Assembly: GCF_006345805.1 (NCBI RefSeq)
Contig: NC_042998.1
Span: 171,988,001-172,052,000 of the forward strand
Reading direction: 5' to 3'
Origin: Octopus sinensis
Taxonomy: Eukaryota
Length of the DNA: 64,000 nt
Translations under genes and position numbers: made by a program
Shown here: positions 1,762 to 21,890 of the stretch, piece after piece
How the letters are laid out: each line of letters starts with the position of its first letter
Position numbering within the stretch: the first letter of the stretch is position 1
The notes under the pieces: generated by a model
The model's database searches: none
What the model was told of the DNA's origin: nothing
What the model saw: only the letters and a program-made list of their open reading frames with translations

Positions 1762-2378
1762 AAGAGAGTAAGGGAAGAGGTGGAGGAGGGGAAGGATAGA
1801 GAAAAAGTGAGAGAGACACACAGGCAGAGAGAGAAAGAAAGAGATAGATAGATAGCGGGAGAGAGTTACTGAGGAGATGGACGTGTAACAAAAGGCTATA
1901 GAATGATGGGGCTCCGTTTCCTGCTATGTTAAACTACCGTGTCGGTATAATTCTATCGATGGTGTATATAATTCTGACCAATATGGAATAGGGTATTATG
2001 TTGTAACCAGAGTCATATATTACAAAATACAAACAGAAAACAAATTTTCGTTATTTCAGAAAGTTCATTTGTTGATATATGTGTGTGGTGTGTGTGTGTG
2101 TGTGTTGTGTGTGTGTGTGTGTGGTGTGTGTGTGGTGTGTGTGTGTGTTCCTTGTGTTGTAAGTCTTGTACTCTATTTTTTCGTTGTTTAAGAAAAATGT
2201 CCATTTCCTTGGTTTTGTGTCTATGTTTTCGTTTCTCATTGTGTTCGACGTTTTTTTGGTGTCCTGTACCCATATATGCATGTATATATACATATAGATG
2301 TATGTACGTACATATATGTATGTACATATGCATATGATTTATTTATTAATTTGTTATTATATATATATATATATATAT
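1046..2378. repeat. Tandem duplication, two units of about 660 bp
   Basis: Near-identical unique segments are offset by 660-661 bp (e.g. AAGGCTATAG at 1231 and 1892). The units differ mainly in microsatellite lengths. Confidence 0.95.
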
Positions 2379-16673: not shown

Positions 16674-17200
16674 TATATATATATTATATATATATACGAC
16701 GGGCTTCTGTCAGTTTCCGTCTACCAAATCCACTCGCAAGGCTTTGGTCGGCCCGAGGCTATAGTAGAAGGCACTTGCCCAAGTGCCACGCAGCGGGACT
16801 GAACCCGGAACCATGTGGTTAGTAAGCAACCTACTTACCACACCGCCACTCCTACGCCTGTACCTGGATACCATATGTTCCAGGGGTAGCGGTGGCGGTG
16901 GTTTCCCATTTCGCTGTTTTCTTAATCGTCTCTTTTATTTTCTAATTCGTGATTGTTACATTTTCTTGCGTCAATCCAACTTACATTTCTCTTTTAAATT
17001 ACCGTAGCCAGCCTGATTTTACATTATGTTGGGCTTTCTTGATCCACATTTCTGTCCAGAATTTCCTGGCTATTTTATCATCTGGCGTATCATTTCCACG
17101 ATGTTCCTCTTCATTGTTCAGTTGTTTATAGAATTTCCGTTGTTCGTAAAAAGTCTACTTTACTGGTACTGATTTGTTCTGCGTTGCTATGTGTTTTTTT
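14900..17200 (-). mobile_element. R4/Dong-clade non-LTR retrotransposon RT remnant, interrupted by a SINE
   Basis: Minus-strand motifs: QRKFYKQLN...KFWTEMW, SNYRPIICLPLRWKLFTG, EEQNGCGK, INYLLYMDDL, LNGGNILKVTNTWAMPVLR...RRTRKLLTMHNMLHPK and LYLPRKEGGR, with many stops. Confidence 0.85.
16419..16857 (-). mobile_element. tRNA-derived SINE family 1 (internal TA/TG microsatellite), full length
   Basis: Head TGTGGTAAGTAG...GGTTCAGTCCC...GGCAAGTG...TTTGGTAGACGGAAACTGA and tail CTTGACAACCGATGCTGGTG...ATGACTGAAA are shared with many copies in the window. Confidence 0.9.
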
Positions 17201-17354
17201 TAATTTTTTCATAGCCATTCATCAAGGTATGCAGCGAGCCACTCATGCAACTGTGAACATTCTCCAGCCAATAATCTTGCACTCCATCCAGGCCTGGTCT
17301 TTCCCATTTTGGTGTCTTTTTAACTTCAGTATATATATATAAATTGTGCGACAG

Positions 17355-17500
17355 GCCTCGTTCGATTTCTGTCTACTAAATCCACTCATAAGGCTTTCGT
17401 CAGACCAGGACAATAGTACAAGACTCTTGGCCAAGGTGCCACGCAGCAGGACTGAACCTGAAACCATGTGGTTGCAAAGAAAACTTCTTATAACACAACC
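17355..17500 (-). mobile_element. SINE family 1, 5' part
   Basis: Diverged match to the family 1 head (CCAAGGTGCCACGCAGCAGGACTGAACC). Confidence 0.75.
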
Positions 17501-17510
17501 AAAAGTTGAC

Positions 17511-17628
17511 ACTTACAATATCTAGGCTTCCCATACGATCTCCCATGTAAGTACTGACTAGGCTCGACATTGTTTAACTACGGTGATCGGAGGAGAATCG
17601 GAACTTCCAATTTGATATGAGCGAAAGT
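17511..17628 (-). pseudogene. Degenerate 5S rRNA gene copy
   Basis: The reverse complement ACTTTCGCTCATATCAAATTGGAAGTTCCGATTCTCCTCCGATCACCGTAGTTAAACAATGTCGAGCCTAGTCAGTACTTACATGGGAGATCGTATGGGAAGCCTAGATATTGTAAGT is 118 nt and colinear with metazoan 5S (box A and box C regions recognisable). A T4 run follows shortly after; many substitutions. Confidence 0.8.
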
Positions 17629-17907
17629 AATGTACACAACCCCATCAGCCTCAGCGGAGTTTTGCTGTTTTTTTGTGTAATCAAAGGCGTAATTGTCTAG
17701 TGCGGAGCTGAAAATCAGTTTTCTACGAGTTGGTGTGACTCGTAACGAAAAATATATGTACTACATTTGTGGCTCGCACACAGACACACACAAGCACAAA
17801 CACACACACACACTGACACCCTCACACACACCCTCCAACATTTTTTCCTTGTGTCCTTATATACATATACGAAGGGGAGACAAACACCCCCGGCCGCCGG
17901 AACTGCA

Positions 17908-17953
17908 TCTAGGGACACCGTGTTTCAGGATCGTTGTCCTTCATCGGCCTAGA
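17908..17953 (-). ncRNA. Type I hammerhead ribozyme (HHR-D), CCGAUGA core variant
   Basis: The reverse complement reads UCUAGG-CCGAUGA-AGGAcaacgaUCCU-GAAA-CAcggUG-UC-CCUAGA. All three stems pair; the only core deviation is U4 to C. Confidence 0.75.
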
Positions 17954-17982
17954 GTAGCAGACACCGGTCAGCTGGTGATATT

Positions 17983-19733
17983 ATATCTTTATTCTGGGCA
18001 CGATGGCCCTAATTCAGACGGGACATTACAAGACGGGACGTGGGGTACATAAAGTAAAAATAAAATATGAAATAAAGATGAATTATATATAATGAGATGG
18101 AACGGCTTACGAACCCCCAACTCGCAGTTCCGTTTAAAATACAATTGTACATTTCACAATTACATATATTCCAGTTCAAAATACAATTTTACATTTTACA
18201 ATTTTACAATTAACAATTTTACTTTTTAACATTACATATATTCTAATTCTTTTATATTGGACGTTCGTCCGTCATATATTCTATTAAGTCCATTTGGTCT
18301 ATTACATTTGGTAAATTGTCATACCGTACATAATGCGTTATATAAATAGCATTAAATATCTTTTTTAATTTTGTGAATGTTTCTTTTTCTATAACTGCGC
18401 CTTTTACATCGTCACCATACAGTTTTGGGTTCAACTTCACCCTGACCAACCCTTTCCTACCTGCAAGTCTCTTTTCCACTTCTGTATTCTTGATATACAT
18501 CACAACTGCTTTCAGGTTTTTTCCTGCAGGCCTTCTTCCCTTTTTACACGCTTCCAACTGCTCTTTCACTCTTGTCTCCCATTCTTGGTCAAACTCTGTC
18601 CATGGCTTCTCTCTCGCCTTCTCTTTTACTTCCTGTTCTTTGCATGTTCTCTCTTCTTTTTCTTCTGTTATCTTGCTTTTGATTTTTTTCTTTTTTTGCA
18701 CTTCCGGTGGTGATTCCACCCTTGTTCTCTTCCTATCTTCTGTTCTTTCCTCCTCTGCACTTGCTCGTTCTTCTTCCGTATCCTCATTTAGCTGCTCCTC
18801 CGTTTGTGCCTCCTCTGCTTTCGCTTCCTCCTGCACTTCTCCCTCCTCCACACACGTATCTTTACACTCCTCTATTACAGCCTCCGGTGCTTTCGTTTTT
18901 TCCCGCGGGCACACATCCTTCATGTGGCCCCTTGATTTACAATTATAGCAGACTGGGGGTCTTCCCTCTACCACGACTCTAAGCCGTGTCTCATCAGGGT
19001 AGACCAACTCCTCCGGGATGTTGTACAGGTCTCGCACGGTTATGTGTGCCAGAACCTGCACCGTATATCCCCACCACTTAACCTCTGTTGACTTCTCCAC
19101 CTTCAACACCTCCACACTATCCTTGCAGTTGAAAACCACTGCCGCCAACAACCTCTCCATATTAAATTCGGGCGAAATTCTGCTAATTCTCATCCTCACT
19201 GCCCTCCTTCCGCAGTAACTTGGTAGTAAAGTCCACTTATCCGTTTTCAAAATCCTTGTTGCATTCTTTTTTGCTTCATTTTCTGTTTTAAAATATACCA
19301 CCACTGTGGCATATTTCCTTCCTCTTTTGAAAAATGTGGGTTCACCCTCAATTTCCTTCAGACACTTTTCTACTTCTTCCGTTTCTGCTACTTCTACTTT
19401 TTTCGACGCCACACACCATGTCCTGTACGTTATCATACGCTTCTCCGCGTTGCTTTCTTCCTCCTCGGACGGTGTGACTCTCACGCAGTCACCCTCCCTC
19501 TTTAAACTGTCAAAATACTTCTCTAGAGTTTTCTGTTCGACCACCACTTCTGCCATTTCCTGTTCACTGGCAACTAGGCCTCTGCCTGCTGCTCTCGCAT
19601 AAGTCTGCTCTTGCATTTTCAAAAATCTCCAACAAAAAACTTTTCAACGTCCTCCAACGAACTCGAACTTACAACCTCTTCACAATGACGCACTCGAAAC
19701 AAACACACCAGAATAACGACTCCAAAAAAAATA
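17983..19733 (-). mobile_element. ORF1-only non-autonomous non-LTR retroelement (1751 bp) with a 17-bp TSD
   Basis: Perfect direct repeat GGTCAGCTGGTGATATT at 17966-17982 and 19734-19750. About 117-nt 5' UTR, a single ORF, and about 270-nt AT-rich 3' UTR ending AATAAAGATAT. No RT or endonuclease is encoded. Confidence 0.85.
18252..19616 (-). CDS. Retroelement ORF1-like nucleic-acid-binding protein (RRM-like region plus CCHC zinc knuckle; Tx1/L1-type ORF1 or ZCCHC3-like), 454 aa from the first ATG
   Basis: The only long, non-repetitive intact ORF in the window. It has N-terminal TYARAA, an RRM-like YATVVVYFKTENEAKK segment, LRVVVEGRPPVCYNCKSRGHMKDVCP (CX2CX4HX4C), a Glu/Lys-rich linker with KKKKIK and an unassigned ~90-aa C-terminal region. 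The ORF track starts at a TTG at 19622; the first ATG is at 19616. Confidence 0.85.
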   Translation of the reverse strand: MQEQTYARAAGRGLVASEQEMAEVVVEQKTLEKYFDSLKREGDCVRVTPSEEEESNAEKRMITYRTWCVASKKVEVAETEEVEKCLKEIEGEPTFFKRGRKYATVVVYFKTENEAKKNATRILKTDKWTLLPSYCGRRAVRMRISRISPEFNMERLLAAVVFNCKDSVEVLKVEKSTEVKWWGYTVQVLAHITVRDLYNIPEELVYPDETRLRVVVEGRPPVCYNCKSRGHMKDVCPREKTKAPEAVIEECKDTCVEEGEVQEEAKAEEAQTEEQLNEDTEEERASAEEERTEDRKRTRVESPPEVQKKKKIKSKITEEKEERTCKEQEVKEKAREKPWTEFDQEWETRVKEQLEACKKGRRPAGKNLKAVVMYIKNTEVEKRLAGRKGLVRVKLNPKLYGDDVKGAVIEKETFTKLKKIFNAIYITHYVRYDNLPNVIDQMDLIEYMTDERPI

Positions 19734-19811
19734 GGTCAGCTGGTGATATTTGCCTCGACTTCGTAATTGTATATATGTATACTCAGTAAAGTTTATTCAC
19801 TGATTATCAAA

Positions 19812-20176
19812 ATAAGAAATATTGAATTTCTAAATCTCTCGTAGAGACATGTACGGTGGTGGGGCGATAGAATGGTTGCATACTGTCAATCTAACAAGAA
19901 CGTGACAGTAGGGGGTACACCACCGCTGTATAGCCCTAGGAAGCATCGAACGCCTCCTGATAGCTTTGACACATTTTTGTCTCCCCTTCGTATATGTATA
20001 TAAGGACAAAGGGAAAAAATGTGTCAAAGCTATCAGGAGGCGTTCGATGCTTCCTAGGGCTATACAGCGGTGGTGTACCCCCTACTGTCACGTTATTGTT
20101 AGATTGACAGTATACAACCATTCTATCGCCCCACCACCGTACATGTCTCTACGAGAGATTTAGAAATTCAATATTT

Positions 20177-20181
<5 letters not shown>
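19812..20181. repeat. Long near-perfect inverted repeat (167-bp arms, 36-bp spacer)
   Basis: 19812-19978 is the reverse complement of 20015-20181, with 2 mismatches seen. Confidence 0.95.
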
Positions 20182-20225
<44 letters not shown>

Positions 20226-20227
<2 letters not shown>

Positions 20228-20684
20228 GAATAGGTAAATAAATGGAGTTGAACGATGTTAATAAAATTCTTTTACTTTCGACATCTTTGACGTCAAATCT
20301 ACTAACAGTCTTTTTAAATACTTAATAACATTCTGTTTACCATGTAGGCAGTCATCGTAATTGTTATAATGTATTGTTGTTGAGAGAGGCTCTCTTTCTT
20401 TCCTGATGAGAAGATTGCATCTTGCACCGTTTATTCCTTTGGAATAAAACCATGTTGTCTTCGAAACATATGTCGAAAGTAAAAGAATTTTATTAACATC
20501 TTCGTTCAACTCCATTTATTTACCTATTCGTCTATAACACACAAATTACTGCACATTAACCCGAAGTTTCTACATTTGGATAGGTCGCTTCAACCGTGTT
20601 TCTGACGTGAATTTGCTACCCTGGTAACGGTTCATTGAATTTTCCATGTTAACGGTAAACATAGGATAATTCATTCACCCATTG

Positions 20685-20686
<2 letters not shown>
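20226..20686 (+). mobile_element. Hammerhead-bearing element in (TA)n with an inverted terminal duplication; same family as 4234-4552
   Basis: IR 20226-20284 vs 20470-20531. It shares CATATGTCGA...CGTTCAACTCCATT and TTCAACCGTG...GTGAATTTGCTACC with the reverse complement of 4234-4552. Confidence 0.8.
20393..20486 (+). ncRNA. Type I hammerhead ribozyme (HHR-E)
   Basis: CUUUC-CUGAUGA-GAAGAU...GUCUUC-GAAA-CAUAUG-UC-GAAAG: intact core, long stem II, palindromic stem III. Confidence 0.85.
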
Positions 20687-20719
<33 letters not shown>

Positions 20720-20723
<4 letters not shown>

Positions 20724-20990
20724 AACAAAAAGAAAGCAAAGACTGAAGAATTTCAGACGATGTTGCTCTTTATATTGGTCGATCAAACTTACACAGAGCA
20801 CAAACGACAGAGAAGATTAAAGGTTAAGTGGTAAGGTGCTGGAAGAGGTAGCTGTTGGACTTATAGCACCTATCTTCTCCCCTTTAATTTTCTCTGTCGT
20901 TTGTACTCTGTATAGGTTTGATCTATTAATATACAAAGCTATGTATTCATCGTCTGAAAGTCTTTAGTCTTTGCTTTCTTTCTGCATACA
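20720..20990. mobile_element. Fold-back / MITE-like element with ~105-bp imperfect inverted arms
   Basis: 20720-20823 vs 20881-20990 (AGAAAGCAAAGAC / GTCTTTGCTTTCT; ACAAACGACAGAGAA / TTCTCTGTCGTTTGT). Confidence 0.75.
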
Positions 20991-20992
20991 TA

Positions 20993-21387
20993 CAGGAGTG
21001 GCTGTGTGGTAAGTAGCTTGCTTACTAACCACATTGTTCCGGGTTCAGTCCCACTGCGTGGCACCTTGGGCAAGTGTCTTCTACTATAGCCTCGAGCCGA
21101 CCAAAGCCTTGAGAGTGGATTTGGTAGACGGAAACTGAAAGAAGCCCGTCGTATATATGTATATGTATATATATGTGTGTGTGTTTGTGTGTCTGTGCTT
21201 GTCCCCCCAGCACCACCAACATCGCTTGACAACCGATGCTGGTGTGTTTACGTCCATGTAACTTAGCGATTCGGCAAAAGAGACCGATAGAATAAGTACT
21301 AGGCTTACAAAGAATAAGTCCTGGGGTCGATTTACTCGACTAAAGGCGCAGTCAAATGACTGAAACAAGTAAAAGAGTAAAAAGAGT
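20993..21387 (+). mobile_element. SINE family 1, near full length
   Basis: Same head, internal microsatellite and tail as 16419-16857. Confidence 0.9.
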
Positions 21388-21496: not shown

Positions 21497-21890
21497 TCTA
21501 CACACACTGTATATAGAACCCAAACTACTATATTTAATTTGTTTATCCGCATAATTGCCTACATACGTATTTATATATGTATATGAGCGTCTATGTCTCA
21601 GTGTGTGCGTTGTTTTAATTATTGTATTTCCTTATATTTTCTTATTTATTTTATATTTATTCCGAGTAACTTTTTTGTGTGTCTTTTTTATATATATTTT
21701 GAACTCGTTTCATTATATATTGCGTAACTTCTTTCACTTCGTCCTTCATCTTTGAACTCGCCTTTCCCACCCCACGTGTCTTTGTAAAAACCCTCTCACC
21801 CCGTTTAATGTTCTCGGCATTTCATTTTAACTCTTCGAGCCCTTTGTGGCTAATAAAAAAAAAGATTATTATTATTATTATTATTATTAT

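Follow-up and report, generated by a model that had tools for sequence, protein, structure and literature searches.

A 64,000-nt stretch of the Octopus sinensis genome (assembly GCF_006345805.1, contig NC_042998.1, positions 171,988,001 to 172,052,000; referred to here as the window) carries a retroelement that lacks long terminal repeats (non-LTR) and whose only gene is open reading frame 1 (ORF1). Our reading of the sequence comparisons, to which we assign a probability of roughly 0.65, is that this ORF1-only element is non-autonomous and related to octopus Tx1-like long interspersed nuclear elements (LINEs), likely mobilized by the endonuclease and reverse transcriptase (RT) of a partner, and that it likely inserts a few bases from RNA polymerase II start sites and would be transcribed from its host's promoter. 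That it belongs to a true ORF1-only family is near certain, and its mobilization in trans is highly probable; start-site targeting with promoter capture is favored with less assurance. The copy in the window consists of the following parts.

17983..19733, minus strand: ORF1-only non-LTR retroelement, subfamily A (1751 bp between identical 17-mers; 91 near-full relatives)
18252..19616, minus strand: ORF1, 454 amino acids, uninterrupted (from the list of open reading frames and the ratio of nonsynonymous to synonymous substitution rates, dN/dS)
19734..19750, minus strand: 5' copy of the 17-bp target duplication (exact 17-mer match; inferred start about 6-7 nt inside)
17966..17982, minus strand: 3' copy of the 17-bp target duplication (exact 17-mer match; same junction type as at 36/42 A-type ends)
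17983..18019, minus strand: 3' terminal hairpin (predicted fold, z -2.8; similar hairpins are predicted for subfamily B and the LINE tail at locus L180)

The initial annotation of this DNA had described a 1751-bp unit with a perfect 17-mer on either side, a single unbroken frame of 454 amino acids, and an AATAAA 5 nt from the 3' end without poly(A). Each of these was found as described, with the AATAAA at 17988-17993. Within the window the 17-mer is present at the two flanking positions alone, even when two mismatches are allowed, and the chance expectation for such matches is 0.02. The insertion had also been called young, which is supported by the 0.6% difference from its nearest other copy; the statement that all other transposon coding regions in the window are broken was compared with the reading frame list only.

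Genome searches returned at least 79 matches to the element (with 40 of 242 candidates scored), and in 75 fetched loci we counted 91 near-full units, 73-100% identical; duplicate records probably account for a few of them. The near-identical locus pairs L067/L068 and L084/L157 are possibly duplicated assembly records or segmental duplications. The copies have both ends in common, and none of them runs on into an ORF2; among 162 family 3' ends, ORF2 homology was found within 1.5 kb upstream of just one, and on the opposite strand. An ORF of at least 430 amino acids is retained by 20 of the 91, and whole-ORF dN/dS values of 0.09-0.43 across nine pairs indicate that ORF1 is under purifying selection. 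There are two types of 3' end, A (that of the window copy, 42 exact matches) and B (76 exact matches, some of which belong to other ORF1-only families), and a relaxed 3' end pattern recovered an older subfamily, A0, at 67-71% identity. Target-primed reverse transcription typically leaves target duplications and 5'-truncated copies, and both are seen here; copies at sites outside Penelope-like repeats have duplications of their own, 8-20 bp long. At least three further ORF1-only families occur in mixed arrays (L091/L103, L145, L155, L156, L159, L176 and L207-L218): C, of about 1.4 kb, and D and E, of about 1.7-1.8 kb. The shared ends, the absence of ORF2, the purifying selection and the homology to LINE ORF1 described below thus support the HAL1-like ORF1-only element, mobilized in trans, that had been proposed, although that proposal missed the related families, the fixed target, the head-to-tail arrays and the promoter spacing.

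The ORF1 protein is organized as follows.

18957..19559, minus strand: two tandem RNA recognition motif (RRM) folds, approximately residues 20-220 (AlphaFold predicted local distance difference test score, pLDDT, about 80; top Foldseek matches are tandem-RRM proteins, E 1e-4)
18909..18950, minus strand: CCHC zinc knuckle, residues 223-236 (zf-CCHC match; invariant in 27 ORF1s)
18255..18581, minus strand: C-terminal domain, residues 346-454 (pLDDT 89.8; the alpha/beta fold is predicted to be ferredoxin-like)

The knuckle that had been claimed together with an RRM is present (the zf-CCHC profile match covers residues 222-237 at E 9e-4, slightly short of the Pfam cutoff), but structure prediction and Foldseek give two RRMs in tandem instead of one. 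The C-terminal extension of about 90 residues that had been called unassignable lies beyond a charged linker following the knuckle, and the last 109 residues are predicted to fold as a ferredoxin-like domain. Foldseek and VIA-align returned no specific structural match to this domain (none at E <= 0.001; best Z 5.0) and an ESM Atlas search no usable one; its dN/dS is below 1 in all eight computable pairs.

A word-indexed homolog search gave no match, an exhaustive search gave 371 proteins, and nine of ten relatives that were looked up are named Octopus proteins. The ORF1 protein is 25-32% identical to the ORF1s that full APE-RT LINEs of this genome encode. In a tree of 22 ORF1 rows, A/B/A0 and E fall into supported groups on long branches, separate from the sampled full-LINE ORF1s, so they are long-established lineages rather than recent deletion products of those LINEs. 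A one-off truncated LINE or a retrocopy of a host gene could be read from the short 3' untranslated region with its AATAAA and from the annotation of relatives as uncharacterized genes in Octopus proteomes. Both origins were rejected on the 91 near-full copies with common ends and the absence of ORF2; the lack of introns, the homology to LINE ORF1 and the separate, long, supported branches also speak against them, and we give them almost no credence. As ORF1 is homologous to the ORF1 of full LINEs in the same genome, neither of these alternatives, both named in advance by the initial annotation, applies.

The insertion site is a fixed position in a host repeat, which we call H1 and which surrounds the element in the window.

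19751..19978, minus strand: upstream portion of H1 (Penelope-like, unit about 365 bp), from flank comparison across loci
17838..17965, minus strand: downstream portion of H1, from flank comparison across loci
19976..20188, plus strand: inverted, 5'-truncated partial H1 copy (174-nt arms, 97%)
17908..17953, minus strand: predicted hammerhead-like motif of H1, minimal and of type I, with a CCGATGA...GAAA core and a helix III that is short and palindromic
19770..19775, minus strand: TATA-like box of H1, 25 nt ahead of the 5' duplication

At loci on many contigs, the element has flanks of identical sequence, and these flanks are those of H1, a repeat about 365 bp long that also occurs as partial tandems and as truncated copies in inverted orientation (2175 candidates in an H1 search). 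The 17-bp target-site duplication that had been described is exact as a duplication but is not one made at a random site, since the 17-mer is a fixed target within the host repeat; it occurs once in empty host copies, and a 27-nt target pattern has 153 exact matches. An H1-type junction, either direct or inside an array, is found at 36 of the 42 A-type ends (another ORF1-only family with the same tail contributes two of the 36). The other six are off-target, five of them truncated, and off-target A ends join A/T-rich starts that resemble those of the usual target. The 75 recovered B ends are distributed between a second host repeat, H2 (26), H1 (4), a third host (8) and other sequences (37). 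Nine of the 25 A-type loci also contain a sister copy of H1 that has no insertion, indicating that insertion usually came later than the arrival of the host. Locus L071 is an exception: its inverted partial host copy contains part of the element, which suggests occasional comobilization by the Penelope machinery.

Partial tandem and inverted 5'-truncated copies are the arrangement of Penelope-like elements (PMC8557442, excerpt), and H1 is likely a non-autonomous Penelope-like repeat. Its hammerhead-like motif, 35 nt downstream of the insertion point, has a visible core and helices (folding z -2.3) when compared with the minimal hammerhead motif (PMC4209133, excerpt), and relatives carry CTGATGA and TTGATAA cores; an Rfam scan of 17000-21000 did not match a hammerhead. 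Immediately upstream of H1, the loci sampled show no ORF with RT/GIY-YIG, and there is one GIY-YIG match downstream in L092. H2 was at one point considered an LTR, an interpretation dropped once a Penelope-type RT plus GIY-YIG frame was seen upstream of it in L150. For A0, a hammerhead core (loose pattern) lies 25-40 nt downstream in 27 of 40 loci, versus a background of 1.1%, and does so in several diverged repeat families.

Small RNA-like sequences lie near some copies of the element. In the window, a full-length 5S rRNA-like sequence (17510-17628, minus strand; Rfam 70.3 bits) lies just outside the host repeat and is possibly a pseudogene or the head of a 5S-derived short interspersed nuclear element (SINE); it was ruled out as a component of the host repeat, being found at the window locus only. 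At L339, a let-7 precursor (1912-1990, plus strand) shares a 6-kb locus with a truncated A0 copy.

Across targets, the fixed spot within other elements is often about 30 bases past a TATA box, pointing to likely insertion at transcription starts. With each host family taken once, there are 14 distinct full-length or array sites, and 7 of them have a TATAWA that begins 24-34 nt upstream of the duplication (background 4-7%; p 2e-5 when 7% is assumed). Thirteen of the 14 sites were tabulated, and L149 was judged by eye on that output; L077 and L140 were excluded, their first units being truncated. With H1 and H2 removed, TATAWA remains at 5 of 12 sites (p 9e-4), and two further sites have a one-mismatch TATA box at -31. 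Insertion at a fixed distance from promoter elements was thus seen across unrelated targets, and more weakly in the related families. The spacing was then fixed as a prediction before A0 was tested, and 13 of 19 A0 copies fit (40 loci, of which 26 were full length and 19 of those had a detectable duplication). One A0 copy, in L321, ends 6 nt short of position 1 of a U2 small nuclear RNA (snRNA), the same offset as that inferred in H1.

L321:303-493, minus strand: U2 snRNA sequence (162.8 bits), directly after the A0 copy

The 5' ends of daughter copies provide a second line of evidence. Daughters at foreign sites in L080, L084, L148 and L149 begin 0-3 nt from the H2 donor duplication, L147 carries two successive tags (L148-like, then H2), and an off-target daughter in L099 begins about 6 nt into the H1 motif. 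These daughter starts lie about 29-33 nt past the donor TATA, as do the leaders of family E. Because daughters begin with the target duplication of their donor, transcription likely starts there, and the 17-bp duplication may accordingly be composite, one part a genuine duplication and the other an RNA leader that annealed to the target.

The position could instead be set by sequence, with the partner endonuclease and target-derived RNA ends recognizing the Penelope terminal repeat, and the TATA spacing arising as a by-product together with the survival of lineages that landed behind promoters. The exact A-type junction at 36 of 42 ends would fit such recognition, as would the short microhomology between the off-target sites of families A and E and the usual target; Tx1 elements are also known to target repeats, with tandem insertions around the duplication (PMC4494074, excerpt). 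However, the TATA-spaced B-type sites in L148, L149, L154, L163 and L164 have no visible sequence in common, either with one another or with the imported leader, and A0 copies hold their position over diverged target sequences. We therefore regard targeting by sequence as rather unlikely, though as the strongest competitor of start-site targeting.

Element copies are stacked head to tail, sometimes together with full APE-RT LINEs. The full LINEs carry ORF1 and a 1133-amino-acid ORF2 frame (APE-RT-zinc), with a tail close to the B tail; one full-LINE tail near the B type has 153 exact matches, and full LINEs also occur in head-to-tail arrays with families C, D and E. The arrays of these three families often lie behind a third TATA-bearing host repeat. 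The stretch from L140 to L180 is a stack of two B copies, one further ORF1 unit and a LINE that has ORF2 and almost the same tail, and 6 of 12 loci with the L180-type tail are ORF2 ends. An apparently intact full LINE, in a tandem pair, extends from L201:8564 to about L202:3630 (ORF1 of 438 amino acids, ORF2 frame of 1133; ORF2 domains in L202 are Exo_endo_phos, RVT_1 and zf-RVT) and is a candidate for the active partner. Tx1 ORF1 carries RRM/CCHC (PMC5203782, excerpt), and the partner is likely Tx1-like, an assignment made from ORF1/ORF2 architecture and motifs. Subfamilies A and B and the L180 LINE have a predicted hairpin before AATAAA in common; to judge from the fold, this hairpin likely serves as the signal recognized by the partner RT. 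A tail motif like that of B and the LINE also ends apparent common short repeats (window positions 21839, 35088 and 35305; L164 and L183-L185), so SINEs may use the same LINE machinery.

Arrays could also have formed passively, by local duplication or RT template jumping, with the element spreading mostly as cargo of Penelope transcripts. Units in L152 differ by only 0.2%, two units in L065 have identical edits, and the inverted host copy in L071 includes part of the element, as such spread would predict. Against it, the sister host copy in the same locus is empty at 9 of 25 A-type loci, each copy inserted outside Penelope repeats is flanked by a separate duplication of 8-20 bp, and the first and last units of many arrays are 5-13% apart, farther than from copies outside the array. 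We consider passive spread quite improbable as the main route.

Passage through RNA has apparently left a trace in five units with A>G hypermutation on the sense strand (66-196 changes, more than 90% of private substitutions). In element-strand positions, these are L065 2524 and 4274, L080 5797, L140 5089 and L162 5069; the L162 unit retains a 445-amino-acid ORF. In the four hypermutated units tested, positions that follow a G have fewer changes than expected, while positions that precede a G tend to have more. This neighbor bias is the preference of ADAR, and octopus is known for heavy RNA editing. The ADAR-type hypermutation points to an RNA intermediate.

Several observations weigh against start-site targeting and its proposed partner. 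Five of the 14 sites (L083, L084, L087, L099 and L147) have no TATA-like motif. Truncated copies have the TATA spacing in one of nine cases (L167 omitted, its body not being alignable), so that the contrast between full-length and truncated sites, 7/14 versus 1/9, is weak (Fisher p 0.086). Only three host families account for the 13 fitting A0 copies, with 12 copies in a pair of related families, and the U2 case is a single locus whose 5' duplication is unclear. Twenty loci with the related E/LINE tail have TATA at -35 to -40 or none, and off-target sites of this group have a short motif in common with the usual target. The main site of the full LINE lacks TATA, and an Rfam search with that target repeat gave no match. 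Subfamily B has a partner LINE with its 3' tail, that of the L180 type; no full LINE with the A-type tail was found among the family 3' ends examined. If arrays grew by repeated insertion at the promoter, the 5'-most unit was expected to be youngest; in 13 arrays this unit was the one nearer to copies elsewhere, in 8 it was the 3'-most unit, and the difference is not significant (p 0.38). Finally, none of the sequencing runs that contain the element is recorded as RNA. Most of the ORF is covered by contigs from runs presumed to be RNA; these contigs cannot show starts and were not used as evidence.

Under start-site targeting with promoter capture, the cycle would run as follows. A host TATA promoter would start transcription inside the 5' target duplication, giving the RNA a short donor tag. 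ORF1p would package the RNA, and the 3' hairpin would recruit a Tx1-like ORF2p in trans, which would nick the target near a start site, about 6 nt upstream of it for subfamily A and at about 0 for subfamily B. The RNA would read a few bases beyond AATAAA into the target and base-pair with the DNA at the nick, which would account for both the absence of poly(A) and the precise junction at the 3' end. A poly(A) signal needs more distance than the junction allows for cleavage within the element, so priming is probably aided by this read-through. With the promoter left intact, the same site would be struck again and head-to-tail arrays would grow. More speculatively, the guild of long-lived ORF1-only elements may be tethered to the RNA polymerase II preinitiation complex, possibly via the ferredoxin-like C-terminal domain of ORF1p, inserting at the start in sense orientation, taking over mainly Penelope-like promoters and perhaps silencing their hosts; we offer this as a tentative extension that we do not ourselves favor.

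The family bears on why ORF1-only elements retain their protein and on how non-LTR elements pick targets. Because several ORF1-only lineages with a conserved ORF1 hold a promoter-relative position on unrelated sequences, ORF1-guided targeting is directly testable here. If correct, the tethering just described would provide both a reason for such elements to keep ORF1 and, among non-LTR elements, a polymerase II counterpart of the targeting seen in TRE5 and Ty3; a LINE system writing at polymerase II starts would also interest gene-insertion engineering. The family further offers a probable case of one transposon parasitizing the promoter of another and a genomic record of ADAR hyperediting of retrotransposon RNA. 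Our literature searches turned up no account of the family or of Tx1-like start-site targeting, although the families may already be consensus entries in Repbase, Dfam or the Octopus vulgaris repeat library; the available portion of a 2026 Octopus vulgaris annotation reports 80 L1-Tx1 families and there makes no mention of ORF1 or non-autonomous forms.

Promoter-relative integration is known from Dictyostelium TRE5-A, whose ORF1p interacts with TFIIIB including TBP, and from yeast Ty3, which lands 1-4 nt from the start site (PMC5911963, excerpt). Those elements target genes of RNA polymerase III, and TRE5 lies 44-54 bp upstream and points the other way, whereas the octopus sites look like polymerase II starts and are entered in sense. 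Tx1L in Tx1D, Keno in U2 genes and SINEU resemble the octopus element in inserting into repeats, in tandem insertions around the target-site duplication and in the suggested transcription from flanking targets (PMC4494074, excerpt). They are full LINEs or noncoding and have one target sequence each, while the octopus element is coding, ORF1-only and holds a fixed position relative to TATA across unrelated sequences, mostly Penelope terminal repeats. Like mammalian HAL1, the element is non-autonomous, LINE-derived and encodes ORF1p only (PMC5753468, excerpt). It is not a mammalian HAL1 proper: the L1-type ORF1p is replaced by RRM-RRM-CCHC with a ferredoxin-like domain, poly(A) is absent, and insertion is into fixed targets and arrays. 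Drosophila HeT-A is also non-autonomous, encodes Gag/ORF1, forms head-to-tail arrays with RT-bearing partners, and has an upstream promoter and 5' tags (bioRxiv 10.1101/782904, excerpt). HeT-A, however, belongs to the jockey clade, is telomeric and has its own 3' promoter, whereas the octopus element is interstitial, has target duplications and apparently uses a foreign promoter, making it an interstitial parallel to HeT-A.
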